A stretch of 64,000 nucleotides of DNA from contig NZ_JAVERI010000003.1 of assembly GCF_034007205.1 (NCBI RefSeq), forward strand, positions 179,374-243,373, given 5' to 3'. Of the stretch, positions 1,377-64,000 are shown one piece after another; position 1 is the first letter of the stretch; every line of letters starts with the position of its first letter. Made by a program: the position numbers and the translations under genes. The DNA comes from Thiomonas sp. (GTDB lineage: Bacteria; Pseudomonadota; Gammaproteobacteria; Burkholderiales; Burkholderiaceae_C). Under the pieces are notes generated by a model. That model did no database searches. It was not told where the DNA came from and saw only the letters and a program-made list of their open reading frames with translations.

Positions 1377-1409
1377 GCGTGGGCGAATGAGCGCTTCGCC
1401 GATCAAAAA

Positions 1410-1440
1410 GGGCCTGAAAAAACAGGCCCTTTTCCTTTTT
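1410..1440. terminator. Rho-independent terminator between convergent genes
   Basis: Hairpin gggcctg-aaaaaa-caggccc followed by ttttccttttt, with an A-run on the other side. Confidence 0.7.
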
Positions 1441-1456
1441 GATGGTGCGCCCGATT

Positions 1457-2488
1457 TCAGGCCTTTGCTCCCGCCTTGTCGGCCTCGGTGGTGAAGGCGT
1501 CGGCGAAAAAGGCGTCTTCTGGAAGCCTGCACTGGCTGGTGAAATCGCGCTGCGCGGCCTCGACCATGACCGGGGCGCCGCAGGCGTAGACCGCATGACC
1601 GGACAGGTCGGGCCAGTCGGCCATCACCGCCTGATGGACCAAGCCGGTGCGCCCGCTCCAGTCGGCGTCCGCTTCGGAGAGCACGGGAATGAAGCGCAGA
1701 CGCGGCATGGCCGCGCATTGCCGCACCGCCCAGTCGTACAGGTAAAGGTCTTGCTGCTTGCGACCGCCCCAGTACAGCGTGACCTCGCGCGAGTCGGCGT
1801 TGGCCTGCATTTGTTCGAGCATGGCCTTGATCGGTGCGAAACCCGTGCCGGAGGCGAGAAAGATGATCGGCTTGTTCTGCGGGTCGTCGCGCAGGAAAAA
1901 GCTGCCGAACGGCCCCTCGATGCGTTGGATCTCCTTCTCTTTCATGGCAGTGAACACATGATCGGTGAACTTGCCGCCCGGCATATGGCGCAGATGCAAC
2001 TCGATCTGCGGCGCTTCGCTCGGTGCGTTGGCCATGGAGTAGCTGCGCCGCGTGCCACCTGGTAGCAGGAACTGGATGTATTGCCCCGCTCGCCAGCGCA
2101 GCGGATCGGCTGCAGGTAGTTGCAGCATGACCCGCACCACATCGGGGGCGAGGTGTTCGATGCGGCTGACCCGGGCCGGCATTTTTTTTACTGCAAACTC
2201 GCCCGCGCCGACCACTTCATGGCTTTCGATCACGACATCGCTGAGCGCCTTGGCGCGGCAGGCGAGAATGAAGCCCTGCGCGCGCTCGGCTTCGCTCAGC
2301 GCCTTGAGTTGGTGCACACCCAGCTCGATCTCGCCCTGGAGCAGCTTGCATTTGCATGCACCGCAGACGCCGTCCTGACAGCCGTAGGGCAGGCCGACCG
2401 ATTGGCGAATCGCGGCTGCGAGCAGGGTTTCATCGCCCTCGGCGGTGTATTGATGGCCGCTGGGCTCAACGGTGACTTGATGACTCAT
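1457..2488 (-). CDS. 2Fe-2S ferredoxin / FNR-type NAD(P)H oxidoreductase (CDP-6-deoxy-delta-3,4-glucoseen reductase-like)
   Basis: N-terminal plant-type 2Fe-2S motif CQDGVCGACKC. This is followed by RRSYSMAN FAD-binding and LASGTGFAPI NAD-binding motifs. Confidence 0.85.
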   Translation of the reverse strand: MSHQVTVEPSGHQYTAEGDETLLAAAIRQSVGLPYGCQDGVCGACKCKLLQGEIELGVHQLKALSEAERAQGFILACRAKALSDVVIESHEVVGAGEFAVKKMPARVSRIEHLAPDVVRVMLQLPAADPLRWRAGQYIQFLLPGGTRRSYSMANAPSEAPQIELHLRHMPGGKFTDHVFTAMKEKEIQRIEGPFGSFFLRDDPQNKPIIFLASGTGFAPIKAMLEQMQANADSREVTLYWGGRKQQDLYLYDWAVRQCAAMPRLRFIPVLSEADADWSGRTGLVHQAVMADWPDLSGHAVYACGAPVMVEAAQRDFTSQCRLPEDAFFADAFTTEADKAGAKA

Positions 2489-2505
2489 GAGAGAACAAGG
2501 ATGAG

Positions 2506-3441
2506 GTGGAAACTGTGAACGATCATTCTGGGCGCGGCCGACCCCGGCTGCTCATCGTGGGCTGTGGCGACATCGGCCTGCGGGTGGCGGCCCTGGCGCG
2601 CGGACGCTACCGCCTGCTGGCGCTGACTTCCTCGCCCCAGCGATTGGAGAGCTTGCGCGCCGCAGGCATCGTGCCCATCGTCGGTCATCTCGACCAGCCC
2701 GAAACCCTGTGGCGTCTCGCCCAGCTTGCCCCCCAGCGGGTGCTGATGCTGGCCCCGCCGGGCGACACGTTTGGCGCGCGCGATCTGCGCAGTCGCCACC
2801 TGATTTCCAGACTGAAACAGTCGGGCATCTTATCTGGCTCCGGGAAAAAAACCTTGCGCGTGGTCTATGCCAGCACGACAGGGGTGTATGGCGATTGCCA
2901 GGGCGAGCAGGCGCCCGAGACGCGCCCATGCCAACCCGAAACCGAGCGCGCACAGCGCCGCTGCGATGCCGAGCGCCAGTGGAGACGCGCGGGCGTGCAG
3001 CACCGCTGGCGCGTGGGTGTGCTGCGCATCCCCGGTATTTACGACGGCGGGGCGCGTTCTCCCCGCGCGCGGCTGGAGTGCGGCCTGCCGGTGCTGACGC
3101 CCGCTGAGGACGTTTATACCAACCACATTCACGCCGATGATCTGGCGCGGCTGTGCCTGCTGGCGCTGGAGCGCGCCTTGCCGGGGCGGGTTTACAACGT
3201 CTGCGACGACAGCACGCTGCGCATGGGAGACTACTTCGATCTCGCCGCCGATCTGTATGGGTTGCCGCGCCCCCCGCGCGTGCCCCGCGCCGAGGCGCAG
3301 GCGGCGGGCTTGAGCCCGATGATGCTCAGTTTCATGCGCGAGTCCAGACGGCTGGACAACACGCGCATGAAAGCCGAGCTCGGCGCCCGCCTGCGCTACC
3401 CCGATGTGGCGCTGGGGCTGCGCGCTGGGCAAGCTCGATAG
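2506..3441 (+). CDS. NAD-dependent epimerase/dehydratase (SDR family)
   Basis: GTG start. Rossmann motif LLIVGCGDIGLRVA. The start codon is uncertain by a few codons. Confidence 0.7.
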   Translation: METVNDHSGRGRPRLLIVGCGDIGLRVAALARGRYRLLALTSSPQRLESLRAAGIVPIVGHLDQPETLWRLAQLAPQRVLMLAPPGDTFGARDLRSRHLISRLKQSGILSGSGKKTLRVVYASTTGVYGDCQGEQAPETRPCQPETERAQRRCDAERQWRRAGVQHRWRVGVLRIPGIYDGGARSPRARLECGLPVLTPAEDVYTNHIHADDLARLCLLALERALPGRVYNVCDDSTLRMGDYFDLAADLYGLPRPPRVPRAEAQAAGLSPMMLSFMRESRRLDNTRMKAELGARLRYPDVALGLRAGQAR

Positions 3442-3442
3442 A

Positions 3443-6430
3443 TCAATGCGTCTGCTGGCTGTTTTCCGGCAGTTGCAGCGTGGGCAGGGGGCGCACGGTT
3501 TCCACCAAGATCAGCGGGCCGTCGTCGAGCCTGGGCGCGGGCTTGCGTTCACGCGGCACATGAATGGGCGCGGGTTGCGCGGCCAATTCTTGCTGCACGC
3601 GGCGGATGGCTTCGGCGTTGGACTGCACCCATTGCAGTCCGGCGGCCTGCACCGTGGACTGCAGGGCTTCGACCGGCAGCACATAGGCGGCAGTCTCCAG
3701 AACCGCCGCGGTTTGGACTGCGGGTGTCGCCCCAGCGGCTTTTTCGACCGCTTCGACGATCAGAAATGAGGATGCAGCCGCCGCGGGTTCGGGCTCGGCT
3801 GCGACGAGCGGCGCTTCTTCGGGTGAAGGAGCGGCGGAAGCAACGACGGGCGCGGGAAGATCGGTCGGCGCTTCGGGCGCGGGAACCGGCGGTGTTCGCT
3901 CTTCCAGCGCGGGCGCAGCGGAGGTTTCCACGGCGCCCAGTGCCAGCGGGGCAGCCAGCGAGCCGAAACTGCGGCCCGTCGTTTCGCCTGCGTCGGTATC
4001 GGCAACGGCCTCGGTCGGTTCGACGCTCGGACTACCGTTTTCGTCGACGGCGGCGCCTTCGCGGCGTCCCCCACGGCGGCCACGACCGCGACGATTGCGC
4101 GATTTGCGCTCAGTCTGCGCTTCGTTGCCCGCGCCTTCGGTCAGCATCGGAGCGGCTTGGGCATCGCCGTCGGCCACGGCCTGGGTTTCGACGGCCTGAG
4201 CGCCGATCCGTTCGGCTTCAGGTGCGGCCTCGACAGGCTCGCGACGCGGACGGCGGCTGCTGCCTCGCCCGTTTGTTGATGCACGTTCGGCGGTATCCGT
4301 GACCCCTTCTTCGGCGGGTACCCGAATTTGATCGGCTGTGGCCTGCGTGCTTTCCTTGCGGGCTGCGGTTTCTTCCGGACTGCGCTCGCGTTTGGCGCGC
4401 TCGGTCTGGCCCCGTTGACCACGAGGCGTCCGGTTGCGTGGGTTGGCACCTTCTTCTGTCACAGGCTCGGCAGCATCGACGCTGCTGGCCGGGGTGCCTC
4501 GTTGCCGGTTTTCACCCTGGCTTTCGCGCTGGCGGTCACGGCCGCCGCGACGGCGGTTGCCGTTCTGGCCGGAAGCCGTGCGCGTTCCGCTGCCGCTTTG
4601 CCCTTGCGCCTTGGTCAGCGCGGGCGTGGCCGGTTGCGCGGCAACCGGGGCCTGTGTTGCGGTGGCTGCGGGTTGAGTTTCGGCAGAAAACAGACGCTTG
4701 ACCCAGCCAAAGAAACCGCCACCAGCCGCGGCGCCCGCAGCAACCGGGGCCGTGCTTGTGGCGATGGCCGGGGCGGGTGCCGGGGCCGGCGTCTTGTCTG
4801 CGGCCGGGGCGGGCATCACCGGGGCCGGGCCTTCCGGAGTGATGCCGCGCACCAGGGCTTCCTGGCGCGGACGCGGCTCTTTTTCACGGCGGGTGATCGC
4901 GGTGTCTTCCTCGATTTCTTCGGCCATCTTGTAGCTGGTGGGCAGATTCTCGAGACGAGGATCGTCGTGCTTGAGGCGTTCGAGCTTGTAGTTGGGCGTG
5001 TCGAGGTGCTTGTTGGGGATCAGCAGTACCGACAGGCGCTGGCGCAGCTCGATCTTGGTGATCTCGGCGCGCTTCTCATTGAGCAGGAAGGAGGCGACTT
5101 CCACCGGCACCTGCACATGCACGGCAGCGGTGCCTTCCTTCATCGCCTCTTCCTGGATGATGCGCAGGATCTGCAGCGCGCTGGACTCGGTATCGCGTAT
5201 ATGGCCGGTGCCATTGCAGCGCGGGCAGGTGACGTAAGCGCCTTCCGACAGGGCGGGGCGCAGGCGCTGGCGCGAGAGTTCGAGCAGGCCGAACTTGGAG
5301 ATCTTGCTCACCTGCACGCGGGCGCGGTCCTGGCGCAGCGCGTCGCGCAGGCGGTCTTCGACGGCGCGCTGGTTGCGCGGCTCTTCCATGTCGATGAAGT
5401 CGACGACGATCAGGCCGCCGAGGTCGCGCAGCCGCATCTGCCGCGCGATCTCGTCGGCGGCTTCGAGGTTGGTGCGTAGCGCCGTTTCTTCGATGGCGTT
5501 GCCGCGGGTGGAGCGCGCGGAGTTGACGTCCACCGCGACCAGCGCCTCGGTGTGGTCGATGACGATGGCCCCGCCCGCGGGCAGATTGACGGTGCGCGAA
5601 TAGGCGGTCTCGATCTGCTGCTCGATCTGGAAACGCGAGAACAGCGGCAGATCATCCCGGTAGCGCTTGACGCGCTCGACCGTGTCGGGCATGACGTGCA
5701 GCATGAACTGCCGCGCCTGCTCGAACACGTCCTCGGTGTCGATCAGGATTTCGCCGATGTCGCTGGTGAAATAGTCGCGGATGGCGCGGATGACCAGCGA
5801 CGATTCCTGGTAGATCAGGAAAGCGCCTTTCTGCGTTTCCGAGGCGTCGCGGATCGCGCTCCACAGCTTGAGCAGATAGTTCAAGTCCCACTGCAGCTCT
5901 TCCGCGCTGCGGCCGATGCCGGCGGTGCGCGCGATCAGGCTCATGCCTTCGGGGTGCTGGAGCTGGTCCATCACCTCGCGCAGTTCCTGACGGTCTTCGC
6001 CCTCGATGCGGCGGCTCACGCCGCCGCCGCGCGGGTTGTTGGGCATGAGCACCAGGTAGCGCCCGGCCAGCGAGATGATGGTGGTCAGCGCAGCGCCCTT
6101 GTTGCCGCGCTCTTCCTTTTCCACCTGCACCAGCATTTCCTGACCCTCGCGGATCACGTCCTGAATGCGGGCCTGCGACGGCGAAACACCCTCCTTGAAA
6201 TACTGCCGCGAGATTTCCTTGAACGGCAGAAAGCCGTGGCGCTCTTCACCGTAGTCGACGAAGCAGGCTTCGAGCGAGGGCTCGACGCGAGTGACGACGG
6301 CCTTGTAGATATTGCCCTTGCGCTGTTCGCGCCCGGCCTGTTCGATATCGATGTCGAGCAGTTTCTGCCCATCGACGATGGCCACGCGCAATTCTTCCGA
6401 CTGCGTGGCGTTGAACAACATGCGTTTCAT
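3443..6430 (-). CDS. rne: Ribonuclease E
   Basis: Start [22 protein letters not shown] at 6430. S1 and catalytic domains are present ([19 protein letters not shown] zinc link). The C-terminal half is long, Arg/Pro/Ala-rich and low-complexity. Confidence 0.95.
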
Positions 6431-6900
6431 TTCAAAGCTCCTGGCCGCATGGCGGCCGATACAAAGCAGGCGCTCAAGGCGCCCCCATGCGTTGACCTCC
6501 GGAGCCAAACCAGGTCGGGTTTGCCGCTGATGCGCAGCACGCCCGGCGGGCAGAATCAGACCGTGCTCATGCAAAAGCCTCCGCCCATCGGTCTGCCTCG
6601 GCGCGCGTCGTCTTTGCGAGGCCGGGCGTTTGGCCTCGGCGTGACGATGCGCCGGCTGTTGCAGCGCTCAGGCGCAACAGCGGGAGAGGAGAGGTTTCGC
6701 GGCAGGTGGGCACAAGCAGATTTCGCCAGCAACGAAAGCACGCAGCGCAGGGTCAGCGCTGAGAGGCGGTCGAGGGCGAAGAGTCGATTCAAGGGTTTCA
6801 GATCCGGGATGGCAAAGCCAGACGGTGGTCGCGGGCGACAAACGCATAGGCGCGACGGCATCATTCAGGCTTTGGGCCAACGCTCATTTCGATGAAGTCT
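6431..6900 (-). promoter_or_regulatory. Long rne 5' leader / divergent rne-rluC control region
   Basis: About 780 bp of non-coding sequence lies between rne and rluC. Long structured rne leaders are typical. The extent given here is a guess. Confidence 0.3.
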
Positions 6901-7212
6901 GTCCGGGTTGCCCCGACGGGAATCGGTTGCGCGGCAAAACGGGGCCGAGTGAAGCTGAATCTAAAATGACAGCCTGGCCAAGGCAGATTCGTCGATTTCG
7001 AGACGGCCCGGATCGGGTGATGTACGCAACCCCGGCTGCAATCGCGATACGAAACAATTGCGACACGAAACAATCGCGGCACGAAAACCTGTCAGGAGGC
7101 AGACTGTCCATTCTTGGCACGTCGCGCCGATGCGGCTTGTCAACTGCACGCAACTTCGCGGAAATATTGCCAAAATTCGTTCTTCCAACTTCACGACTTC
7201 ACGCCTGATTAT

Positions 7213-8927: not shown

Positions 8928-9653
8928 TTACATCTGCGGACGCATCACGTTCGGGATGTTGACCGCAGGCGTTTGCACCGACGGCACGTTCACACTCGGG
9001 GTGTTCACCACCGGCACGCTGATCGCTGGCGTCTGTACCGACGGGACGTTCACGCTGGGGGTGTTGATTGCCGGGATGTTGACCGCAGGCGTTTGCACCG
9101 ACGGCACGTTCACACTCGGGGTGTTCACCACCGGCACGCTGATCGCTGGCGTCTGCACCGACGGCACGTTCACGCTGGGGGTGTTGACTGCGGGCACAGT
9201 GATCGCAGGTGTGACCGTGGAGGGTACGTTGACGGCGGGAGCCTGGGCCGAGGGGATTTGCGCAGCGGTTTGCGCGCCCTGGTTCTGGGTCGATGTATTC
9301 ACCTGACTCGGAGCGCCTGTACGGGTCTGCACCGTATTGCGTTGTTGCACCTCATGACGCGATTGCGCGCCAGTAGCCTCTATGGAGGAAGTCTGCACGG
9401 CGTTTCCAGAGCCTGTGCCGCTCTGTACCGAGGTGCGGGTCTGCGCCGAAGTCGAGGTATTGGCGGTACCTGCCGAGGTCGTGGCATTTGTCTTGGTTTG
9501 GGTCTGCGAATCGATCGTGCGCGTCGTGGCGGTGGTCAGAGTTTGTCCGTCCTGCGCGGCGCTTACGGCGGTTTGCGCGTAGGCGAGTCCGATGGACAGC
9601 GAAGCGGCTGCAATGGCAGCGGACAGAATGGTGAGGGTACGGGTCTTGGACAT
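8928..9653 (-). CDS. Secreted Thr/Ser/Gln-rich protein with C-terminal P/V/S/T repeats
   Basis: Signal peptide MSKTRTLTILSAAIAAASLSIGLAYA. C-terminal 20-aa repeats VNTPSVNVPSVQTPAISVP. Confidence 0.7.
   Translation of the reverse strand: MSKTRTLTILSAAIAAASLSIGLAYAQTAVSAAQDGQTLTTATTRTIDSQTQTKTNATTSAGTANTSTSAQTRTSVQSGTGSGNAVQTSSIEATGAQSRHEVQQRNTVQTRTGAPSQVNTSTQNQGAQTAAQIPSAQAPAVNVPSTVTPAITVPAVNTPSVNVPSVQTPAISVPVVNTPSVNVPSVQTPAVNIPAINTPSVNVPSVQTPAISVPVVNTPSVNVPSVQTPAVNIPNVMRPQM
8953..9192. repeat. Two tandem 120-bp copies (each made of 2 x 60 bp) inside the CDS
   Basis: 8953-9072 and 9073-9192 differ at about 4-5 positions. Confidence 0.9.
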
Positions 9654-9780
9654 GATGTTCTCCTGAAAGAGAGGGTGGGTTGCTTCACGCTAGTGGGAAA
9701 AATTACTACAAGCGCTTGGGTCTATAATAGTGGCAAAATTTCCCACGTCAACTGCACCCGCATCGTTTTATCCTGTGTCC

Positions 9781-55330: not shown

Positions 55331-55939
55331 ATGAGCAAGAGCATCGGCATTTACCTTTTCCCTGAAGTGGAGGCGTTGGACTTCGCTGGCCCATTTGAGG
55401 TGTTCACTACCAGCAGCAGAGTCCATAAGCGGCTTCATCCGGAAAAGGCAGAGCCGTTTCAAGTCTTCTCTGTTGCGGAGAACCTGGCACCGGTTCGCGC
55501 ACGAGCAGGTTTACGCATCGCGCCCGACTATAAAATCAACAGCCACCCAGACATTGATGTTCTGATCATTCCTGGGGGCGTCGTCACAGACGAACTTCTC
55601 AAGCCAGAAGTCTTGCGATGGGTCTCGCGGTGCGGCAACTCATCTAAGTGGGTCGCCTCCGTGTGCACCGGTGCGTTCATCCTGGCCAAAGCTGGCGTCG
55701 TCAGCAGAGGGCGTGTCACCACACACTGGGAAGATCAAGCCGAACTCGCGGAGTTGTTCCCCGCCCTAGAAGTGATCAACGGCCCTCGCTGGGTTGAACA
55801 GGGCAGAGTCATCACATCAGCTGGCATCTCGGCCGGCATCGATATGTGCCTTTATCTTGTGGGTTGCTTGTGCACGCCGATACTTGCAGAAGCAACTGCG
55901 CGCCAGCTGGATTATCAATGGAACACAGGTCATGGCTAA
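55331..55939 (+). CDS. Cassette 2 ORF: DJ-1/PfpI family protein
   Basis: GIYLFPEVEALDFAGPFEVF, VLIIPGG, ASVCTGAFILAKAG nucleophile elbow, ITSAGISAGIDM. Confidence 0.85.
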   Translation: MSKSIGIYLFPEVEALDFAGPFEVFTTSSRVHKRLHPEKAEPFQVFSVAENLAPVRARAGLRIAPDYKINSHPDIDVLIIPGGVVTDELLKPEVLRWVSRCGNSSKWVASVCTGAFILAKAGVVSRGRVTTHWEDQAELAELFPALEVINGPRWVEQGRVITSAGISAGIDMCLYLVGCLCTPILAEATARQLDYQWNTGHG

Positions 55940-56056: not shown

Positions 56057-56272
56057 ATGCCATCACTAACTCAAGCAGAAATCGAAGGAGTATTCTCGGC
56101 CCTAGGGCTTGCCAATGACGCTTCTCGCGAAAAGTTCCGTCGCCTCGCGGCTACGGCGGAACAACAAGAGACGCCATTGTGCTTCATTCGCGTAGACGAC
56201 TCATCGTCGTGGTCGGACCAAGGAGAGAAATATGCCCAGCTGGCACCAGCTACTCGAAGAGATCAAGACTAA
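56057..56272 (+). CDS. Cassette 3 first ORF: 71-aa hypothetical protein
   Basis: Its ATG is 17 nt after the core, like the other cassette ORFs. GGGAG lies upstream. It overlaps the next gene by 41 nt. Confidence 0.45.
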   Translation: MPSLTQAEIEGVFSALGLANDASREKFRRLAATAEQQETPLCFIRVDDSSSWSDQGEKYAQLAPATRRDQD

Positions 56273-57221
56273 GGGCAGCACGTTCGATGTCATTCGGCGG
56301 AAGTATCTCCAACGTCTCGAACGAGTTACTGGCCGCAATGTCATCCTGTACTACTCCGGCTGGCTGCAGAAGCCAGGAATGGTAGGTGTACAGGTTAATG
56401 ACGCTGACAAGAATGGCTTCATGACTGTAATTCATGGCCTAGACCGCAAACGAGGCCTCGATCTACTTCTTCATACACCAGGGGGAGAAACCGCGGCTAC
56501 AGAGTCGCTCGTGGACTATTTGTACTCGATGTTTGGCACGAACATTCGCGCCATAGTCCCCCAGTTGGCGATGTCGGCCGGCACGATGATCGCGTGTTCG
56601 GCGCGCGAGATCATCATGGGTAAGCAATCTAGCCTTGGGCCAATCGATCCGCAGTTCAGCAACCTCCCTGCGCACGGCGTTGTGGAGGAGTTCAAGCGGG
56701 CCGCCCAGGAGATTTCGGAAGACCCATCGAGGGTCGCGCTTTGGCAGCCTATCATCGCCCGCTATCATCCCACACTCATTGGTGAGTGTGAGAAAGCCAT
56801 TCAATGGTCAGCGGACATGGTCCGTGAATGGCTTGTGCGAGGCATGCTCAAGGATCACGTCGATCCAGTGGCAAAGGCATCAGAGATAGTGACTGAACTC
56901 TCTGATCACGCGCTAACCAAGTCGCACGCGAGACATCTTTCCGCGGACAAGTGTAAGGCGATCGGTCTGAACATTTCAATGCTCGAAGACAACCCTCGCC
57001 TTCAGGACGCCGTGCTCACAGTGCATCATGCCTGCATCCACACACTAGGCTCCACCCAAGCCTTCAAGTTGATTGAAAACCACAAGGGAGTCGCGTTCAT
57101 TCAGATAGCCCAGCAAATGATTGTCCAAGGCCCAGCGAATATTGAGCTCGTTCCTCGCTTGGAGCCACCGCCGCTCGCTGCCCCCCAAGAGGTGCCGCAG
57201 CCGGGCGAGAATGGCGCCTAA
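56232..57221 (+). CDS. Cassette 3 second ORF: SDH-family (S49/ClpP-fold) serine proteinase
   Basis: VILYYSGW, LDLLLHTPGGETAA, IVPQLAMSAGTMIACSAREIIMGKQSSLGPIDPQ. AGGAG lies 8 nt upstream of the ATG. Confidence 0.75.
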   Translation: MPSWHQLLEEIKTKGSTFDVIRRKYLQRLERVTGRNVILYYSGWLQKPGMVGVQVNDADKNGFMTVIHGLDRKRGLDLLLHTPGGETAATESLVDYLYSMFGTNIRAIVPQLAMSAGTMIACSAREIIMGKQSSLGPIDPQFSNLPAHGVVEEFKRAAQEISEDPSRVALWQPIIARYHPTLIGECEKAIQWSADMVREWLVRGMLKDHVDPVAKASEIVTELSDHALTKSHARHLSADKCKAIGLNISMLEDNPRLQDAVLTVHHACIHTLGSTQAFKLIENHKGVAFIQIAQQMIVQGPANIELVPRLEPPPLAAPQEVPQPGENGA

Positions 57222-57297
57222 CCACAACTTCGAGCGGACCGTTCACAAGCGGCGCTGCGCGCCCCTTGTGCCCGGCCCCTCAAGTTGATCGTTATAC
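57216..57297 (+). other. attC site 3
   Basis: R'' GCCTAAC (containing the stop TAA) ... cccctcaagttgatc R' GTTATAC. The arms are similar to those of attC1. Confidence 0.65.
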
Positions 57298-57306
57298 GTA
57301 CAGACA

Positions 57307-57759
57307 ATGACAGCGCCGGAAATCAAGGGATGGAGAGCGGTTGCAGGCTCCATGATCCAAGCGTCCTACGAGGTCGCGTTTGTGCTGCTGCCTGTGTTGG
57401 TCTGGATCCTCGTACTGCTTTCTCTCGGCAAGTCTCAAGATGTTAAGACCTTGGCTGCATGGCCCTTCGCGAGCCTTTCACTTTTCAGCGCAATGCTCCG
57501 TGATGGCATTTCTGCGTTCCATCAAGACACAACAAAAGACAAAGAGCAAAGAGATCTCATCGTTGTATTCGCGCTCATCGGGGTTATTCTGAGCACGGTT
57601 CTGCTTACGCTGGCCGTTATGAAATCAACCGGACAAGTCACCTATCTTTGGTCGTTCTTCTATGAAACGGTGTGGACGTTTGTAGCTATTAGCGCCCTGC
57701 TTCTATTCGTCACAAAAGCTATTCTGATTCAACGCAAAAGTTATGGTCGGTACGTATAA
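57307..57759 (+). CDS. Cassette 4 ORF: 4-TM membrane protein of unknown function
   Basis: Four long hydrophobic segments. The ATG is 10 nt after the core. Confidence 0.65.
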   Translation: MTAPEIKGWRAVAGSMIQASYEVAFVLLPVLVWILVLLSLGKSQDVKTLAAWPFASLSLFSAMLRDGISAFHQDTTKDKEQRDLIVVFALIGVILSTVLLTLAVMKSTGQVTYLWSFFYETVWTFVAISALLLFVTKAILIQRKSYGRYV

Positions 57760-57829: not shown

Positions 57830-58473
57830 GGAAGCGCTGAAGAAATGACCTCTTGGCCGAAGCCGTTGATGTCCATGGTCGCAAACTGCGCAAAGATCGA
57901 GCAGTTTTGGGTCGGCAGGCGCAAAAAGGGACCGAAAACCGACGGTGCACGCCGCCCTTTGTCTCATTTCTCACACTGCGGACGCACCTCGGGTGTCGAG
58001 GCGCAAAACCTGCCTGCGCGCCAGCAGCAGATTGGCCAGGGCAAACAGGGTGTGCAGTTGCGCGGTGTTCTTCGCCAGTCCGCGGTAGCGGGTCTTGCGG
58101 TGCCCAAAGAGGTTCTTCACCACATGGAAGGGATGCTCGACCTTGGCGCGGATGCTGGCCTTGATGCGCTCGGCCTGCTCGAGCAGCCGCGCCCAAGCCT
58201 GTTGGCCGGGCAAGGCGCCGCGCGAGCCGGTAGCGCGCCCTCGACGATGCCAAACACGCCGGGCGCCCTCGGTTCTTGCGCGCCGCATGCGGCTCGATCA
58301 GCGGCAGCAAAGCACCCCCCGCGGGTCCACGCACTGCATCTCCTCGAGAAACGGCACCTTGCGCGTCTTGCGCTGCGTCAGATGCAGACCCAGTTCAGAT
58401 TGTTTGATCCTCACACCTTGGCCCGGCTGCATCCGCGCTGCGCCGGGACGTTGTGGGATTTTTTGAACACCAT
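57830..58473 (-). mobile_element. IS5-family element remnant (transposase internally deleted and frameshifted)
   Basis: N-terminus KQSELGLHLTQRKTRKVPFLEEMQ..LIEPH and C-terminus IKASIRAKVEHPFHVVKNLFGHRKTRYRGLAKNTAQLHTLFALANL, with no central DDE region. Boundaries are approximate. Confidence 0.7.
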
Positions 58474-59390
58474 ACTTGGGTGGCGGGCAGTTGCCAATCG
58501 AGTGCGTCGAGGCTGTCGCCGTCTTGCCACGACCCATCCCACGCATGCGGCTCGGCGCTCTCCAGCAGGAGCAGCGTGAGGACACGATCGCGCGCGCCGT
58601 AGCTGTGCTTGAACTCGCGCAGCTTCATGTGCGGTGCTTCTTCCGTACACCAGACCGCGGCGGACATCTCGGTGCCATCCCATTCCTGATCGACGCCGGC
58701 GTCGCCGGCCAACGTGCCCGGCAGCGGTTCCTGCGGATCGCCGTTGCGCCGGATGCGAGCCCGCGTCTTGACGGCGCTGCTGCTGCGCCATTCGTACTTC
58801 ACGTAGCCGTTGTCCCAATGGACGAGGATCCCGCGCTGCGGGGTGAACTTGATGAAGCGGATGCACAGCGCCTCGAACGAAACCTGAAACCGCTTCGCGA
58901 TGGCGCCGAGGACGTGCAGGTCGATGCGCTGGTGCGAAATCCAGTCGCGCAGCAGATCGCCGGGCATCAGCAGGTTGCTGGCGAACTCGTCGGCTTCGCG
59001 TTCGATGGCGCGGATGGTGTCGATGCCGGTGTGGACGCTTTCGTTGTCGCAGTTGAACCTCTGCTGCCGGCCGCGATGCAGGATGAAGTGGCCCAACTCA
59101 TGGGCGATGGTGAAACGCCGGCGCTCGGGGTTGGCATTGCCGTTGTAGAAGATGCCCCACTCGGCCGCGTCCTTCGGGTTGCGCACCAGCATCCCTTCAC
59201 AACTGTCGACGTCGAGCACCGCCGGCGCCTTGATCTCGCGCACACCTTTGCCGTAAGGCGTGCTCGGCAGCATCTGCCGGACGATGTCCAGATCGACGGC
59301 GTCGGGCATGCCCGTGCCGTACCACGCCCGCAGCCACTTCTGGACGGTGTTGGCGGCAATGGGGCCGGTGAGGGCCGGCGTTGCGCTCAA
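58395..59390 (-). CDS. ImmA/IrrE-family metallopeptidase with extra C-terminal domain; 3' end runs into the IS5 remnant
   Basis: HEXXH motif IAHELGHFILH and EREADEFASNLLMP. A TTG start at 59390 overlaps the XRE stop (alternative ATG at 59309). The last ~25 codons are IS-derived. Confidence 0.7.
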   Translation of the reverse strand: MSATPALTGPIAANTVQKWLRAWYGTGMPDAVDLDIVRQMLPSTPYGKGVREIKAPAVLDVDSCEGMLVRNPKDAAEWGIFYNGNANPERRRFTIAHELGHFILHRGRQQRFNCDNESVHTGIDTIRAIEREADEFASNLLMPGDLLRDWISHQRIDLHVLGAIAKRFQVSFEALCIRFIKFTPQRGILVHWDNGYVKYEWRSSSAVKTRARIRRNGDPQEPLPGTLAGDAGVDQEWDGTEMSAAVWCTEEAPHMKLREFKHSYGARDRVLTLLLLESAEPHAWDGSWQDGDSLDALDWQLPATQVWCSKNPTTSRRSADAAGPRCEDQTI

Positions 59391-59734
59391 GTCTCCATCC
59401 CCGCTCTGGCCTTGTCGGGGAACATGATCTTGAGCGCCTGGCGGTAGCGATCCTTTTCCTCGTCCGTCATCCCGGCGTACTCGCGGAAGAAGGCCACGTC
59501 CTCTGGGCTGGCTTCGGGTGCCTGCTGCATGGGCGTGCCCATCACGTCCTCCATCGTCACGCCGAGTACCTGAGCGATTCTCTGAATCCGCTCGGCGGAC
59601 GGGCGCTGGCCCTCCCTCATCTCCAGTTCCCAGATGTAGGCCTTGGTGCAGCCGACCGCGTCGGCGACCTGTTGCAGGGTCAGCTTCTTCGCCTCGCGCA
59701 AGCGCCGCAGGCGTGCTCCAAACGCCGAAGCCAT
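59387..59734 (-). CDS. XRE-family HTH transcriptional regulator
   Basis: FGARLRRLREAKKLTLQQVADAVGCTKAYIWELE. An alternative start exists at 59758. Confidence 0.85.
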   Translation of the reverse strand: MASAFGARLRRLREAKKLTLQQVADAVGCTKAYIWELEMREGQRPSAERIQRIAQVLGVTMEDVMGTPMQQAPEASPEDVAFFREYAGMTDEEKDRYRQALKIMFPDKARAGMET

Positions 59735-59777
59735 GGCGATGCTCCTGTTGCGGCTCAACAGCCGGTGAATGAATCCA

Positions 59778-59793
59778 GGGTATCAGTATACCC
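59778..59793. promoter_or_regulatory. Palindromic candidate operator
   Basis: gggtat-cagt-ataccc in the divergent intergenic region. Confidence 0.4.
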
Positions 59794-59828
59794 GCGAGAG
59801 ACATGGAAGGCTCGATGTCCTTTGTTGA

Positions 59829-59857
59829 TTGACAAGCGGAAATCTGCGGCTCAGAAT
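59829..59857 (+). promoter_or_regulatory. Sigma-70-type promoter reading toward 59978
   Basis: TTGACA-17 nt-CAGAAT. Confidence 0.5.
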
Positions 59858-59977
59858 CGCGCTTGCATCTCGTTACTTTACTTACGCGAGATGCGTGTTC
59901 AGCCATCCTGTCGCTGGCCCGTGCAGCCCGTCCATCGGTCGCAGACCTCCGACGCCGATCCAGAGAGGACGACCAAG

Positions 59978-61216
59978 TTGAAGAAGACCTTTGTCGACGT
60001 GATGCTCGAGCTGCCGGTGGACGCCACGCTGCGCGACTTCCTGACCTCGCACGGCCTGCCGGTGCCCGAAGGGTTCGCCTGGGACGAGACGCCGCAAACC
60101 AGCCAGTTCCTGGTGGACGCGGTCAAGGTGTGGCCCGATACCGCCGCCCGCGACCAGATGATCGCCAACCTCATGGCCGCCGTCCAACTGGGCGACGCGG
60201 CGGGCCAGCAGGCGATATTCGAAGCCGCGGCGGCCGATGGTGCCGCACTGACGGGCTTGGCGACTCTGTGCCAAAGCGACGTTCACCGCTCGTTCTGGCT
60301 GTACATCCATCACCCGACGCTGTTCGAGCGCGCCTACGACTTCAGCTTCTGGGAGCACCACGGGCCGCAGAGCCAGCAATACGATCTGGGTCTGAAGCGC
60401 CAGCCGGACGGCTCCGACCGGCAACTGGCCGCGCTGCGCAACGCGATCTCGGCGTTCTACGAGCGCGAGATGCATTGCGGCGACGGCAGCGTCGCGCATT
60501 TGGTCGAGCGCAGCCCCGGCGTGTTCCTGCTGACCGTCCATGTCAAGGACATGGCCATGCTGCGGCTGGAGTTCGAGGGCTCAACCTTGAAGCGCCGCGT
60601 CGGCAATCCCAACATCCACATGGTGCTCGAATACGCCAAGTCCACCGGCGTGGTGCGCACGCTGGTGCGCGGCGGGCAGAAATACCAGCAGATGCTGGTC
60701 GAGGCCTTCGCCGAGCATGTGCTGGGCGTCAAGGCGAACGCGCACCGGATCAAGTCGCCGACGCTGGATTTGTCGATGTTGCGCACCGGTTTCGACGCTC
60801 CGGAGGCGTTCGAGGACGGTTTCTCTCTGGTGCAGCTCAAGGCGCTCACCCTCCTGAGCCCCGACGCCGCGCTGAAAATCGAATGCACCGCGATGCAGTC
60901 GAGCCAGCAACGCTCGGTGCACGAGTTGCTGAAGGAAAAGCTGCCCGGCCCGCTGGAAGGCAACTGGGCGGTGACGGCGGCGCAGGTCAATCTCTACTAT
61001 CCGCCCGAGCCGGGCCGCACGCGCGCCCGGGTGGTGACCATCGAGGTGACCAGCAAGGGGCGTCTGAACCTGAACAAGTTCGACCCCAAGATGCAGGCGC
61101 AGTTAGAAGGCTATCTGGTCTCGGTGGGCATCTTGCAGAAGGGGCAGACCCTGAGCGCGCAGGAGATCCCGCCGGAGGGCGACGCGATCCGTTCCTCGCC
61201 GGCGTTCGAGGACTGA
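59978..61216 (+). CDS. Hypothetical protein, 412 aa (ORF A)
   Basis: A TTG start 8 nt after GAGAGGA is preferred. Composition is coding-like throughout. No motif recognised. Confidence 0.6.
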   Translation: MKKTFVDVMLELPVDATLRDFLTSHGLPVPEGFAWDETPQTSQFLVDAVKVWPDTAARDQMIANLMAAVQLGDAAGQQAIFEAAAADGAALTGLATLCQSDVHRSFWLYIHHPTLFERAYDFSFWEHHGPQSQQYDLGLKRQPDGSDRQLAALRNAISAFYEREMHCGDGSVAHLVERSPGVFLLTVHVKDMAMLRLEFEGSTLKRRVGNPNIHMVLEYAKSTGVVRTLVRGGQKYQQMLVEAFAEHVLGVKANAHRIKSPTLDLSMLRTGFDAPEAFEDGFSLVQLKALTLLSPDAALKIECTAMQSSQQRSVHELLKEKLPGPLEGNWAVTAAQVNLYYPPEPGRTRARVVTIEVTSKGRLNLNKFDPKMQAQLEGYLVSVGILQKGQTLSAQEIPPEGDAIRSSPAFED

Positions 61217-61219
61217 TCG

Positions 61220-62173
61220 ATGGCGGCGCACGATGCCTGGGCCTTGGTCTGCCGCCTGTTCGCAGGCGGCACGCCGGTGCTGCGAACCACGCTGTCGCCG
61301 CGCGAACTGGCTGCGCTGTCCGTCCTCGGCAAGGCGGTCAAGCCGACGGTCGTCGATCATTCCTTCGTCCTCTGCCCGCACTGCCAGCAGCATCGGGCGC
61401 AGGTCTGGGGCGACGGTCGCGGCGGACGCATGTGCCGTTGCCCGGAGTGCGGGCCCGTCGCCGTCGAAGCCAACGATGGTGCGGCGTTGGCCTTGGACGA
61501 GGAATGGTTGCGCACCAAGCTGCGTCTCGCGCTCGGCATCGAAAGCCGCGACGGCATCGATGACCTGGGCGACGGCGTGTGGCGGCTGGGCCAGGCTCGC
61601 CGCTCGCCCGTGCTGCTGGCCCGCGATCTGGTGCGGGTGCAGCAAGAACCCGCGCTGTTGGATCGCGTGCGCGTCGCCGGCGGCGACATCCGGGTGATCA
61701 CGCCCAGGCCGCGCACGACGCGCGGATCGCCCTTCGGCGCGGGCGTCGAGTGGCTGGCGCTGGAGGAGCGCTTCACGTTCTACGGCGGCGCGATCGCGCT
61801 CCTCGGCGCGCCGTCGCCGTCCTCGACGCCGGCAATCGCCGATCCGGCCGCGCCGGTGAACGGGCCGTTCTCGGCGGATTTCAAGTGGGCGACGCTGCCG
61901 GACGGCTACGGCACACCGATCCGGTTCACCGACGGTCAGGCCAGGGTGTTCAAGGCGCTGTGGTCGTTCAAGGGCAAGGCCGCGACGGCCGAACGCATCA
62001 TGCAGCGCGCCGGCTTGAACAGCGCCAAGCCGAGCGACCTGTTCAAGATCAAGCCGAAGGACAGGGGCAAGCAAGAACCTGCGGCACAGCACGCGGCCTA
62101 CGGTGCGCTCGTGATCACGCAGCGACGCGCAGGCTTGTACTCGATGCCCTGCGCGGCGGGCGCGTTGGCGTGA
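61220..62173 (+). CDS. Hypothetical zinc-ribbon protein, 317 aa (ORF B)
   Basis: Starts 3 nt after the ORF A stop. CPHC-X17-CPEC motif. The C-terminal segment FTDGQARVFKALW..TAERIMQRAGL looks wHTH-like. Confidence 0.6.
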   Translation: MAAHDAWALVCRLFAGGTPVLRTTLSPRELAALSVLGKAVKPTVVDHSFVLCPHCQQHRAQVWGDGRGGRMCRCPECGPVAVEANDGAALALDEEWLRTKLRLALGIESRDGIDDLGDGVWRLGQARRSPVLLARDLVRVQQEPALLDRVRVAGGDIRVITPRPRTTRGSPFGAGVEWLALEERFTFYGGAIALLGAPSPSSTPAIADPAAPVNGPFSADFKWATLPDGYGTPIRFTDGQARVFKALWSFKGKAATAERIMQRAGLNSAKPSDLFKIKPKDRGKQEPAAQHAAYGALVITQRRAGLYSMPCAAGALA

Positions 62174-62395
62174 TCGATTGCTGCTCCAAGTTCGCCGGAC
62201 AACCGATGGCGGCGGCACGCGCGTAAATCACGGCCGCGCAAGGCCGTGTGCGTGTGCCACGGCGAAGAAGTTGGCGCAGGTTTCGAGAGAACAGAGAGCA
62301 AAAATGGAGCGAACCGGGCGCGGCATGGGCCCCTGTCTGCCGACCCTCGGCACACGCAGAACGGCCCGCAACGCCACGTGCCGCGCGGAATCCGC

Positions 62396-62430
62396 AAATG
62401 AAAACGCCCAGCCGAGAACGGTTGGGCGCT
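62396..62430 (-). terminator. Rho-independent terminator immediately 3' of the tRNA-like fragment
   Basis: Minus strand reads cgcccaacc-gttctc-ggctgggcg followed by ttttcattt. Confidence 0.65.
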
Positions 62431-62436
62431 GAATAG

Positions 62437-62474
62437 TGGTGGCGGAACACGGAACCGAACCCGCGTCCGCAATC
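62437..62474 (-). other. tmRNA/tRNA 3'-end-like fragment (T-arm, acceptor strand, CCA); probable att scar
   Basis: Minus strand reads gattgcGGACGCGGGTTCGGTTCCgtgttccgccACCA. No matching 5' acceptor strand or cloverleaf lies upstream. Confidence 0.5.
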
Positions 62475-62586
62475 CGAGCCAGATAGTAACGCCTTGGCCT
62501 TGAGGGCGTGGATTCAACGATTTGGCCGCTGGCGCTAGAAATAGTAAGCAATCCATTCCCCAATGTATCGAGGTAGCCAGGGCCCG

Positions 62587-63129
62587 CTAAGCCTCAAGGG
62601 GGAGCACCCCAGGCGCAAGGCCCTCGACGTACATCAAACGCTTTAATTCGCTGGCGCGTTCGGCTGGAACGGTCAACGTGAGCATTCCGGCTGCGACTGC
62701 CTCCCACCCACCGCCCAGTGAGTGCAGATGCCGCGCAAGCTGATGCTCATTATTGAAGCCGCCCGAGGTAAGAAAGCGGAAATGTGCATATGGACGGGGC
62801 ACGCATACCGAGGTCAGTCGGAGCGTGCCATCTTCACCCTTGTCGGCGTTGAACTCGTCGCCCCAGTACAGCCTGAGTCCGGAAAACGGTCCCAGCTGTC
62901 GTTCGGCAAGGCGATAACGATTTCCACCGAGCGGGACAACGCCAACCTCTTCCTGGTCCCATTCTTTGCAGCGCACGAGATCAAGTTGCCCGTCGTCATT
63001 CCAAAAGGGACCGCCGGAATCATCGTCAGCCGGAAACTCCAGTACGGCATCTGCTGCGCCTTCGACGAGAACGTAGAAGCCGCTGGGGACTGAATGGGGT
63101 TCAGTGGGCATGGCGTCCATTTGATTCAA
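62587..63129 (-). CDS. Hypothetical protein (DUF4265-like pattern)
   Basis: The likely ATG is at 63120. LGGNRYRLAE..GLRLYWGDEF..DGTLRLTSV..HFRFL..GGGWE..LTLTVP resembles DUF4265 as recalled. Confidence 0.6.
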   Translation of the reverse strand: MNQMDAMPTEPHSVPSGFYVLVEGAADAVLEFPADDDSGGPFWNDDGQLDLVRCKEWDQEEVGVVPLGGNRYRLAERQLGPFSGLRLYWGDEFNADKGEDGTLRLTSVCVPRPYAHFRFLTSGGFNNEHQLARHLHSLGGGWEAVAAGMLTLTVPAERASELKRLMYVEGLAPGVLPLEA

Positions 63130-63135
63130 TCTTTA

Positions 63136-63187
63136 TCACAAGACGCCGCGGCCGGTCTCGGAATTCAGAATCGCCGCAAGTTGGGCC
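63136..63187. repeat. 52-bp direct repeat, copy 2 (non-coding remnant)
   Basis: About 87% identical to 63712-63763. In the minus frame it reads ..SAQLAAILNSETGRGVL*. Confidence 0.8.
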
Positions 63188-63224
63188 GAGGCGCTGAAGA
63201 TCGGTGGTGACAATGGACATCACT

Positions 63225-63698
63225 TCACCTTTGGTTCGGGACAAAAACATGACTTTCACTGAGTGAACCTTTGACGCGCCAACCCACAGGCGTCTGAATA
63301 TCAAACTGCAATGAAGGCACCCGTGTTCCCGAGACAGGAGGAGCCTCAGCAGCGAACCAGCAGATTCGAACGCGGCATTTATTTTCTCCGTCGTCAATTT
63401 CTAGGACGCTATGGGCGATCCAGTTGCACTGCAGGGTTGGTCCCTGTCGCTGATCTAAAACAACAATATCTGCAGCCTTGCCTCCCAGGGAAAAAGTCAG
63501 CCCCATGGATTCACACCAACCAATGAAGCGTTCTACCTCGTCGGGTGAGCGGAGGTGAATGCAAGTCAGATCGTTATCAAAACAAATGGATTCATCTTGC
63601 AACCCTTCTTGAAAACGACGTGGTCCGCCATGGAATTTTCGCAAGAGCGCATCATTTCGGACAACAACCGACAACCCCTCGACAAGTACCGCCATCAT
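63225..63698 (-). CDS. Hypothetical protein, 157 aa
   Basis: AAGGGA lies upstream. It starts 13 nt after the upstream stop. No motif recognised. Confidence 0.6.
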   Translation of the reverse strand: MMAVLVEGLSVVVRNDALLRKFHGGPRRFQEGLQDESICFDNDLTCIHLRSPDEVERFIGWCESMGLTFSLGGKAADIVVLDQRQGPTLQCNWIAHSVLEIDDGENKCRVRICWFAAEAPPVSGTRVPSLQFDIQTPVGWRVKGSLSESHVFVPNQR

Positions 63699-63711
63699 TT
63701 TCCCTTTCGAG

Positions 63712-63763
63712 TCATAAAACGCCGCGACCGGTCTCGGACTTCAGAAGCGCCGCAAGCTGGGAG
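63712..63763. repeat. 52-bp direct repeat, copy 1 (3' end of the upstream CDS)
   Basis: Encodes ..GSQLAALLKSETGRGVL*. Confidence 0.8.
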
Positions 63764-64000
63764 CCCGACTTCAACTTCTCAATGAATGTGCAGCCTGCGT
63801 TGTTGGGCTGCCAGTAAGGGCAGGCGAGAAAGTACGCGTCCAGAAGCCCAGTCGCGTTCTGCTTTCGTCGCAACACCATGTTTTCTCCGTGAACCGGACA
63901 CGTCGCCAGTTCGACCCCACGATGGCCTGAATTCAAATCCGACTTGAGGTCATTGAGTCGGGTATCGATGATCTTTTCCGTGCCCTTGTCGGTGAGGATG
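63712..64000 (-). CDS. Protein with degenerate topoisomerase-type zinc-finger-like C-terminus (5' end outside window)
   Basis: The frame is open to the window edge. CPVHGENMVLRRK...ACPYWQPNNAGC. Confidence 0.55.
   Translation of the reverse strand, partial: ILTDKGTEKIIDTRLNDLKSDLNSGHRGVELATCPVHGENMVLRRKQNATGLLDAYFLACPYWQPNNAGCTFIEKLKSGSQLAALLKSETGRGVL

Follow-up and report, generated by a model that had tools for sequence, protein, structure and literature searches.

A 64,000-nucleotide stretch of Thiomonas sp. DNA from contig NZ_JAVERI010000003.1 (the window, by which we mean this whole stretch) carries near its right end two adjacent open reading frames (ORFs), ORF A and ORF B, that face a divergent pair of genes for an XRE-family repressor and an M78 zinc metallopeptidase, which raises the question of what this small cluster is and what its two uncharacterised products do. 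A preliminary description of the DNA had offered two answers, a stranded core function of a mobile element or a regulated effector pair resembling abortive-infection (Abi) or toxin–antitoxin (TA) systems, and had recorded an att-like scar beyond ORF B. Our comparison with related loci supports the first answer: the scar is real and marks the terminus of a prophage, and the pair (hereafter A–B) is retained across the phage family even in members that lack XRE/M78. We are highly confident that positions 58506–62442 are the stranded right end of a temperate prophage whose remainder has been lost. To the overall account, which adds to this that A–B would be a DNA-binding pair used as the phage exits lysogeny, we assign a probability of about 0.6.

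The locus reads as the stranded end of a decayed prophage because DNA homology to related loci is limited to 58506–62442, with an att junction at its right limit, a break at its left limit and no other phage genes nearby. In DNA comparison, this interval was 81% identical to its counterpart in Sulfurimicrobium lacus and 89% identical to those in Pandoraea and other Burkholderiaceae. Everything that lies to the left of 58506 in the related prophages is absent from the window, and no recombinase, replication or structural gene was found within 10 kb of the locus. The surviving piece amounts to 3.9 kb, containing four genes and 270 bp, whereas the parent prophages measure ~44–50 kb; the other ~45 kb is missing from the window. 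The left deletion boundary is the remnant of an insertion sequence (IS) of the IS5 family, itself outside the prophage, which abuts the point where prophage homology ends; an IS-associated deletion would have removed the remaining prophage. What remains is the immunity switch of the phage and the operon that faces this switch, that is, a prophage immunity region with a CapH/CapP-type switch and genes for two uncharacterised proteins.

The right limit is sharply defined. The prophage ends in TGGTGG (62437–62442), which corresponds to the CCACCA 3′ end given to the target tRNA, and among the related elements the terminus reads ...GGTTGGGCGCTGAATAGTGGTGG and is followed directly by a tRNA body on the opposite strand. 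Because the element end meets the tRNA body in this way, the phage end evidently supplies both the CCACCA 3′ end of the tRNA and a terminator hairpin. Of the 84 loci that could be classified, 77 have their right junction at the 3′ end of a tRNA, namely tRNA-Ala(CGC) in 35 loci and tRNA-Phe(GAA) in 42. Which of the two tRNAs was used did not track the phylogeny of the serine recombinase (SerRec), of A, of B or of any other gene. The prophage family, although it uses a large serine recombinase, inserts at the extreme 3′ end of tRNA genes, and closely related phages use both tRNA-Ala and tRNA-Phe (L004, L006–L011 and L017–L089, where L numbers denote individual loci). In the window itself the element abuts a tRNA-like 3′ fragment; ARAGORN called no tRNA in the window, and an Rfam search over 58300–63000 gave no match.

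Synteny and the att junction place the locus, as a remnant, in a family of temperate prophages related to the phage AcaML1 and characterised by DUF2924, a large serine recombinase and an AAA_24/DUF6511 replication module. Its members insert at the 3′ end of tRNA-Ala(CGC) or tRNA-Phe(GAA). Over 70 species among the Beta- and Gammaproteobacteria carry them, at 75–92% identity. To describe its gene order we sampled 74 genome loci from different species and 44 IMG/VR viral contigs. In most of these loci one strand carries, in order, DUF6511, AAA_24, Bro-N, a 161-amino-acid (aa) protein, the large serine recombinase, DUF2924, often an OST-HTH protein, variable cargo, M78 and XRE, and the opposite strand carries ORF A, ORF B and often a DUF2188 gene. 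The IMG/VR provirus contigs are 44–50 kb long and end directly past ORF B or DUF2188. A 76-aa DUF2188 gene lies between ORF B and the terminal arm in L001, L018, L019 and about half of the related loci, and is absent in the window. The slot for variable cargo is located between DUF2924 and M78, not at A–B. Its length varies widely among relatives (measured between DUF2924/OST-HTH and M78), and in Burkholderiaceae (L006–L011, from Pandoraea and relatives, at 900–7100) it holds, for example, PepSY, PAP2 and DUF347 genes together with a two-component system. The features of the locus are collected in Table 1.

Table 1. Positions in the window of the genes, regulatory features and boundaries discussed in the text.
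Feature	Position	Strand	Remarks
IS5-family DDE transposase, C-terminal remnant	57974–58288	−	Pfam DDE_Tnp_1 3.9e-10, profile positions 126–200 of 200 only
M78 zinc metallopeptidase, CapP/ImmA/IrrE-like, 331 aa	58395–59390	−	Pfam Peptidase_M78 2.3e-23; PADLOC capP 5.3e-54
XRE-family helix-turn-helix (HTH) repressor, CapH/ImmR-like, 115 aa from ATG	59387–59734 (open frame to TTG at 59758)	−	Pfam HTH_31 9.7e-16; PADLOC capH 6.7e-24
6-4-6 palindrome GGGTAT-cagt-ATACCC, GGGTATCAGTATACCC	59778–59793		Window-specific; only the right half overlaps a conserved element
Operator-like 17-mer O1, GTATACCCGCGAGAGAC (consensus GTATAGCCGCGAGATAC)	59786–59802	+	Overlaps inferred XRE −10
Predicted sigma-70 promoter of the ORF A–B operon, TTGACA-17-CAGAAT	59829–59857	+	Sole sigma-70-like match in 59300–62700 (0.3 expected)
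Inverted 17-mer copy O2	59865–59881	−	Left part of the dyad, at the predicted ORF A transcription start
Dyad GCATCTCG-N14-CGAGATGC at the predicted transcription start	59865–59894		8-nt arms, 100% complementary
ORF A, 412 aa, helical N-domain followed by alpha/beta domain (model)	59978–61216	+	TTG start
ORF B, 317 aa, Cys4 zinc ribbon, middle domain, C-terminal winged helix (predicted)	61220–62173	+	ATG start
Conserved non-coding right arm of the prophage, attR junction at its end	62174–62442		Homology to relatives stops at 62442–62461 in ~90 loci
Terminator hairpin in the right arm	62405–62428, T-run 62400–62404	−	Terminator-like site prediction
tRNA-like 3′ fragment, start of a different island, outside the prophage	62443–62480	−	tRNA-Ala(CGC) intact at this place in sister assembly L004

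The two genes of the operon seem to belong together. Their lengths, and the start of ORF B 3 nt past the ORF A stop (the intervening nucleotides are TCG), are as the preliminary description gave them. Over 54 elements the pairwise identities of A correlated with those of B at 0.91, and in eleven distant loci (L181, L183, L185, L189, L201, L202, L204, L211–L213 and L215) an A-like domain forms the N-terminal half of a ~750-aa frame. An hhalign comparison (E 0.003, probability 10%) found the C-terminal halves of these ~750-aa proteins collinear with ORF B across 197 columns, although at least one of the proteins, that of L183, has no zinc ribbon, and the ~750-aa proteins appear to be fusions of A-like and B-like halves. 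From the 3-nt gap, the correlated identities and the apparent fusions we infer that ORF A and ORF B make up one functional unit.

Relatives of ORF A and ORF B ranging from 21% to 90% identity were found in a variety of settings. A–B lies divergent from XRE/M78 in more than 100 loci, and ORF A adjoins XRE in every XRE/M78-bearing relative with enough sequence; some relatives have no XRE/M78. Among the latter are the most distant pairs (21–31% identity), in which a ~400-aa gene is followed by a ~270–320-aa gene beside DUF2924–SerRec and/or AAA_24, DUF669, helicase and primase genes. In relatives whose recombinase is 53–57% identical, an A-family gene sits between DUF2924 and AAA_24 in most of the loci that cover this interval. 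The order of genes takes four forms: A–B heads the early/replication operon, divergent from XRE–M78–DUF2924–recombinase (L130, L132, L177–L179 and others); the same arrangement occurs without XRE/M78 (L084, L131 and L169); all genes are co-directional (L016); or A–B stands alone at the prophage end, as in the clade of the window. Replacement of A–B by other cargo was never seen in the relatives examined, and the pair shows none of the patchy, swapped distribution of accessory cargo. Because A–B is retained where XRE/M78 is missing and the variable cargo sits elsewhere, the pair probably serves a core phage function, and the data argue that it is a vertically inherited core component of the phage family. 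Among the other genes, the identities of A and B correlated most with those of SerRec (0.79–0.81), followed by M78 (0.70–0.73), XRE (0.63) and AAA_24 (0.50–0.53).

The closest link to a cultured phage runs through the fused forms. AcaML1 (JX507079), a cultured temperate Acidithiobacillus phage that also encodes terminase, portal and capsid proteins, has at 3281–5536 a gene for a 751-aa 'hypothetical' protein, Gp6, to which metagenomic fused homologues are 30% identical over 99% of their own length; their N-terminal half is ORF A-like and their C-terminal half aligns weakly with ORF B. AcaML1 resembles the present family in its large serine recombinase, Bro-N antirepressor, primase and A/B-related protein; it differs in having one fused gene, in the co-orientation of that gene with the recombinase and in having no XRE/M78 pair. 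Gp6 lies in the large serine recombinase operon, divergent from a regulator, the Bro-N antirepressor and the primase. AcaML1 was reached in the search of phage records only through a fused distant homologue: tblastn with ORF A found no match in 50,697 phage records or 72,556 plasmids, and tblastn with ORF B found none in the same phage records. The P0297 search gave no match.

What might ORF A do? Its family is large (379 clusters at 50% identity in a representative library) and its sole family match is the unannotated phrog_37634 (1e-28); no Pfam, NCBIfam or PADLOC family matched ORF A (PADLOC at E ≤ 1), and sequence searches of the PDB with single proteins and with profiles returned nothing meaningful. 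An AlphaFold2 (AF2) model built from a 46-sequence alignment was predicted with confidence (predicted local distance difference test, pLDDT, 93.4; predicted template-modelling score, pTM, 0.84) and contains a helical N-domain at ~1–131, which is extra (~130 aa) relative to RdgC, ahead of the alpha/beta domain. Foldseek against the PDB matched this model to E. coli RdgC (2owl and 2owy; E 2e-4, probability 1.0, ~320 columns, TM score 0.29–0.37), with CENP-N/Chl4, which are related to RdgC, also among the best matches; among viral models the best matches include phage proteins that carry an RdgC or recombination-associated annotation (E 4e-6 to 9e-4). We therefore describe ORF A as having, on the confident model, an RdgC-like fold, with the proviso that the template-modelling (TM) scores of the matches are low. 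E. coli RdgC is a nucleoid-associated and recombination-associated protein that forms a ring dimer on duplex DNA and antagonises RecA. In structure the ORF A model comes closest to RdgC and to RdgC-like phage proteins; like RdgC, ORF A shows no enzyme signature, and it occurs in phages beside recombination genes. No column of the 46-sequence alignment is invariant and neither acidic residues nor histidines are conserved in it, and because of this ORF A is probably not an enzyme. At columns conserved to at least 97%, the window's ORF A has no private changes, and neither do its ORF B and XRE.

For ORF B the preliminary description had proposed a zinc ribbon, CPHC-X17-CPEC, and a C-terminal segment resembling a winged HTH. 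The ribbon is present, its four cysteines (C52, C55, C74 and C77) being invariant in 31 homologues of 33–87% identity, as expected of a zinc ribbon, whereas the spacer is 18 residues rather than 17; weak Zn_ribbon and DUF3797 matches occur in 12–18 members of the family. No Pfam, NCBIfam or PADLOC family (PADLOC at E ≤ 1) was obtained for ORF B. The AF2 model is less confident than that of ORF A (pLDDT 83.5, pTM 0.56), and within it the C-terminal ~100 aa matched the DNA-binding domains of ArlR, OmpR, PhoB and GlnR in Foldseek (E 0.035–0.7, probability to 0.97, TM ~0.5); the ORF B profile aligned to the OmpR DNA-binding domain 6zwt with E 0.087. The C-terminus thus resembles, weakly but consistently, a winged helix of the OmpR/PhoB type (Trans_reg_C). 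ORF B differs from OmpR/PhoB proteins in having no Trans_reg_C match in Pfam and no receiver domain, the zinc ribbon and middle domain preceding the winged helix instead.

Across the intergenic region, the XRE gene and its ImmA-type neighbour, as first described, match regulator families in both Pfam and PADLOC (Table 1), and their sequences make the pair CapH/CapP-like, that is, of the regulator class that includes ImmR/ImmA and DdrO/IrrE. An XRE HTH gene, which the source assemblies call as 115 aa, adjoins and overlaps by 4 nt a gene for an M78 peptidase with an HExxH motif. The PADLOC capP match spans profile positions 38–242 of 242, to the last position, and residues H97/E98/H101 (HELGH), C114 and E130 have the spacing of the active site and 'cysteine switch' of Thauera CapP (Lau et al., 2022; 10.1101/2022.04.27.489752), C114 lying 13 residues past H101 just as C113 lies past H100 in the Thauera protein; profile coverage and this spacing point to the central and C-terminal (GAF-like) domains of the class and to the cysteine switch that a subset of it has. 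Residues 1–298 are 86% identical to a 309-aa Pandoraea homologue and the sequence diverges beyond: the last 11 aa have been swapped for 33 unrelated residues, with a breakpoint at ~58497–58506. CapH/CapP, ImmR/ImmA (of ICEBs1 and phage phi105) and DdrO/IrrE (of Deinococcus) likewise combine an XRE repressor with an M78 HExxH peptidase in overlapping, co-transcribed genes, and CapH/CapP-class pairs lie upstream of, and divergent from, the operon they regulate. In ICEBs1 (immR-immA-int) the repressor and peptidase are on the strand of the integrase, as they are in this phage family. The present pair, a putative switch, differs in belonging to a serine-recombinase prophage and in facing ORF A/B. 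In this class, single-stranded DNA (ssDNA) arising from damage activates the peptidase, leading to cleavage of the repressor (10.1101/2022.04.27.489752; 10.64898/2026.05.16.725639). By analogy, control of ORF A–B by the XRE/ImmA-type pair is plausible in this lineage, because synteny is kept, because each of the two divergent promoters is overlapped by operator-like repeats and because the peptidase resembles CapP and has the cysteine-switch spacing; the divergent placement, with candidate repressor sites in the shared intergenic region, is itself preserved in more than 100 loci.

The candidate repressor sites emerged from an alignment of 91 distinct intergenic regions from relatives. The operon promoter that had been proposed, TTGACA-17-CAGAAT, is present and is conserved in 91 distinct relatives as an extended −35 block, TTGATTGACAAGCGGAAAT, together with the −10. 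The neighbouring palindrome also exists where it had been placed, but as a conserved operator it fails: ten inverted repeats of at least 6 nt occur in the 300 bp around it, which puts it at chance level, and it is specific to the window, relatives carrying, for example, gaccgctAGTATAGCC at its position. We therefore rejected it as an operator. Instead, a 17-mer pattern, allowing up to 3 mismatches, has three matches in the 64-kb window, of which two lie here (0.42 expected). The first of these (O1) overlaps the inferred −10 of the XRE promoter, TATACT (59785–59790, minus strand), the complement of AGTATAGC; that sequence is identical in 22 of the 22 diverse relatives displayed, with the window alone differing, and its assignment as the XRE −10 is plausible. 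The second (O2) forms the left part of a dyad that sits where transcription of ORF A is predicted to begin. Within this dyad symmetry is kept in 78% of cells among relatives, compared with 19–58% when the partner arm is slid; it shows eight compensatory cells, a number reached in 2 of 500 shuffles. The 17-mers and the dyad are likely, as predictions from these alignments, to be repressor sites.

The ~110-nt leader that follows has a conserved sequence that contains indels. We rejected it as a structured RNA (−2.6 kcal/mol for a shared structure, with no compensatory pairs), and we rejected an upstream small ORF in it as well, indels among relatives breaking the frame. In the window copy, five private substitutions fall at regulatory positions conserved to at least 95% among the 91 relatives (59786–59981), in the operator-like 17-mers and the ORF A start, which is TTG in the window and ATG at that position in relatives, and regulation may be altered in this remnant. 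In L117, a close relative without XRE/M78, a 71-aa ORF (9521–9736, minus strand) lies between DUF2924 and ORF A and the start-site motif TGTATCTCATGGTTTTACTT is kept; because the motif is retained there, the 71-aa ORF may encode a different regulator.

Taken together with the known class, these features suggest how the operon would work in an intact prophage. If the pair acts as its homologues CapH/CapP, ImmR/ImmA and DdrO/IrrE do, the XRE repressor would bind the 17-bp sites over its own promoter and over the ORF A transcription start. DNA damage would generate ssDNA, which would activate the M78 peptidase, and the activated peptidase would cleave the repressor; the ORF A promoter would then fire, with A and B transcribed and translated as a coupled pair, and an A–B complex bound to DNA would act at the transition from lysogeny to lysis. 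Guided by the structural models and the gene context, we infer that A–B is a DNA-binding unit active as the phage leaves lysogeny. What it would do there can be narrowed only tentatively. The pair may assist recombination, by controlling SerRec-driven excision or by modulating RecA in the manner of RdgC, and we favour this accessory role among specific functions because A–B lies beside DUF2924/recombinase in nearly every arrangement, because the divergence of A/B tracks that of the recombinase above that of the intervening XRE/M78, and because RdgC-like proteins modulate recombination. The constant nearness to DUF2924–SerRec and the identity correlation of 0.79–0.81 are also indirect hints of a recombination directionality factor, a protein that binds a serine integrase and turns it towards excision.

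Several observations weigh against this account and its parts. The kinship of ORF A with RdgC is one of fold only, with TM scores of just 0.2–0.37: Pfam RdgC (PF04381) matched neither ORF A nor any of the 46 family members at E ≤ 1, hhalign gave the ORF A family profile a probability of 0.1% against E. coli RdgC, and RdgC has no counterpart of the helical N-domain. The winged-helix match of ORF B is weak (best E 0.035), and the B-likeness of the C-terminal halves of the fusions is marginal, at the 10% probability given above. The fused gene of AcaML1 is co-oriented with the integrase, a poor fit to a pure excision factor, and in the family at large A–B has no fixed place with respect to the recombinase, lying divergent from it, co-directional with it or at the prophage end. 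Differences in rate or saturation, and not co-adaptation, could explain the correlation with SerRec. Several independent remnants keep A/B intact, and the window copy is free of private changes at conserved columns, which fits a benefit to the host as well. Finally, the phage nature of the clade rests on IMG/VR classification and homology to AcaML1, the fetched flanks of close relatives containing no structural genes.

A benefit to the host is the premise of the explanation closest to the effector pair first envisaged, in which A–B, with DUF2188 where present, would be an anti-phage or abortive-infection system at the prophage end, regulated by CapH/CapP, triggered by damage or infection and retained by the host after the prophage decayed. 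The regulators match PADLOC capH and capP strongly and have the cysteine-switch spacing, a position next to att is typical of accessory genes in prophages, all four genes are intact in several decayed copies, conserved columns of the window's ORF A and ORF B are unchanged, and in this strain the remnant is flanked on the right by another island, which has McrBC-like genes. Moreover, the layout is not wholly undescribed. No Pfam or NCBIfam family and no known function attaches to A or B, but Lau et al. (2022) had already listed the same arrangement (their Figure 6F) as a 'DUF2188 + hypothetical protein system' of Extensimonas perlucida HX2-24, comprising a CapP-like protein, a CapH-like protein, two hypothetical proteins and DUF2188, and they placed it among 'known or likely' defence systems, leaving the prophage context unmentioned (10.1101/2022.04.27.489752); a link between DUF2188 and defence has been drawn in the literature. 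Its gene order is that of many relatives of the window with DUF2188 after ORF B, and its host is also a betaproteobacterium; DUF2188 is present there and absent from the window. Cluster look-ups gave no match that would confirm by accession the Extensimonas hypothetical proteins as homologues of ORF A/B. The label is moreover one of guilt by association alone, and the proteins themselves point elsewhere: neither is matched by a defence family in PADLOC-DB at E ≤ 1; Pfam, NCBIfam and PHROG scans of the two proteins (412 and 317 aa) turned up no domain of a toxin, of a nuclease, an NTPase or another enzyme, of a pore or of any other effector, nor did they report a transmembrane domain; and ORF A has no invariant polar residue that could be catalytic. 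The pair has also been kept, down to ~21% identity, with phage recombinase and replication modules even where CapH/CapP-like genes are missing, and A–B was never swapped for cargo, the variable slot being the one between DUF2924 and M78. A toxin or defence-effector role is thus less likely, and we consider the defence system as formulated here improbable.

We judge it slightly more improbable still that A–B is an early transcription or replication-initiation factor, comparable to Cro/CII or an O protein, with ORF B binding specific sites through its winged helix, ORF A assisting and the two together switching on or initiating the replication module downstream. This idea draws on the loci in which A–B leads an operon whose later genes are Bro-N, AAA_24, DUF669, helicase and primase (L130, L132, L177–L179 and others), on the resemblance of the ORF B C-terminus to the domains of OmpR/PhoB activators and on the conservation without RNA structure of the ~110-nt leader, suggestive of protein-binding DNA. 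It sits poorly with the clade of the window, in which A–B is apart from the replication genes and points outward to attR, with AcaML1, in which the fused gene is in the integrase operon and opposite the early genes, and with the correlation of A/B identities, which is lowest for AAA_24. As for the remnant itself, it could be functionally dead DNA whose ORFs are intact merely because the deletion is recent, in keeping with the replaced C-terminus of M78, the change of the ORF A start from ATG to TTG, the five private substitutions at conserved regulatory positions and the further decay of other remnants (ORF B is truncated in L051 and M78 in L027, for example). This we regard as very unlikely, given that all four reading frames are full length, that the conserved columns of ORF A, ORF B and XRE are free of private changes and that the remnant is shared by two assemblies with different right flanks. 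The reading that we prefer remains that of a stranded prophage end whose A–B pair would bind DNA as the phage leaves lysogeny. Bolder versions, in which A–B is an unrecognised DNA-binding machine of two parts, an RdgC-like fold and a zinc-ribbon/winged-helix protein that are sometimes fused, and steers, across a large family of temperate phages of proteobacteria, the direction or timing of recombination by a large serine recombinase specific for tRNA 3′ ends, or else a new DNA-damage-triggered defence module kept by hosts, are doubtful.

Other features lie on either side of the remnant. To the right of the junction, the island (62443–64000) contains a DUF4265-like gene (62590–63129, minus strand), small unknown genes and a 50-bp repeat whose two copies, at 63136–63185 and 63712–63761, are 88% identical; McrBC-like genes lie further on, beyond the window (L005). 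In the sister Thiomonas assembly the place of this island is taken by an intact tRNA-Ala and ordinary chromosomal genes. In several other loci (L023, L024, L048 and L062), too, tandem elements separate the prophage end from the tRNA. To the left of the IS remnant, 56232–57759 holds a gene for an SDH-family ClpP-like serine protease (329 aa) followed by one for a 150-aa predicted membrane protein, and a DJ-1/PfpI gene lies further left, at 55331–55939.

As it stands, the locus is an ordinary prophage remnant with two interesting unknowns, and what had been seen as a free-standing regulated operon of unknown function, or as a likely defence layout, becomes the terminal immunity region of a widespread prophage family. 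The models provide first structural leads for two conserved phage proteins without family assignment. Should A–B prove to be a defence system, it would add a type of effector without an obvious enzyme; and if it is true that A–B controls excision by the serine recombinase, the pair would be relevant both to the biology of these prophages and to genome engineering based on integrases.

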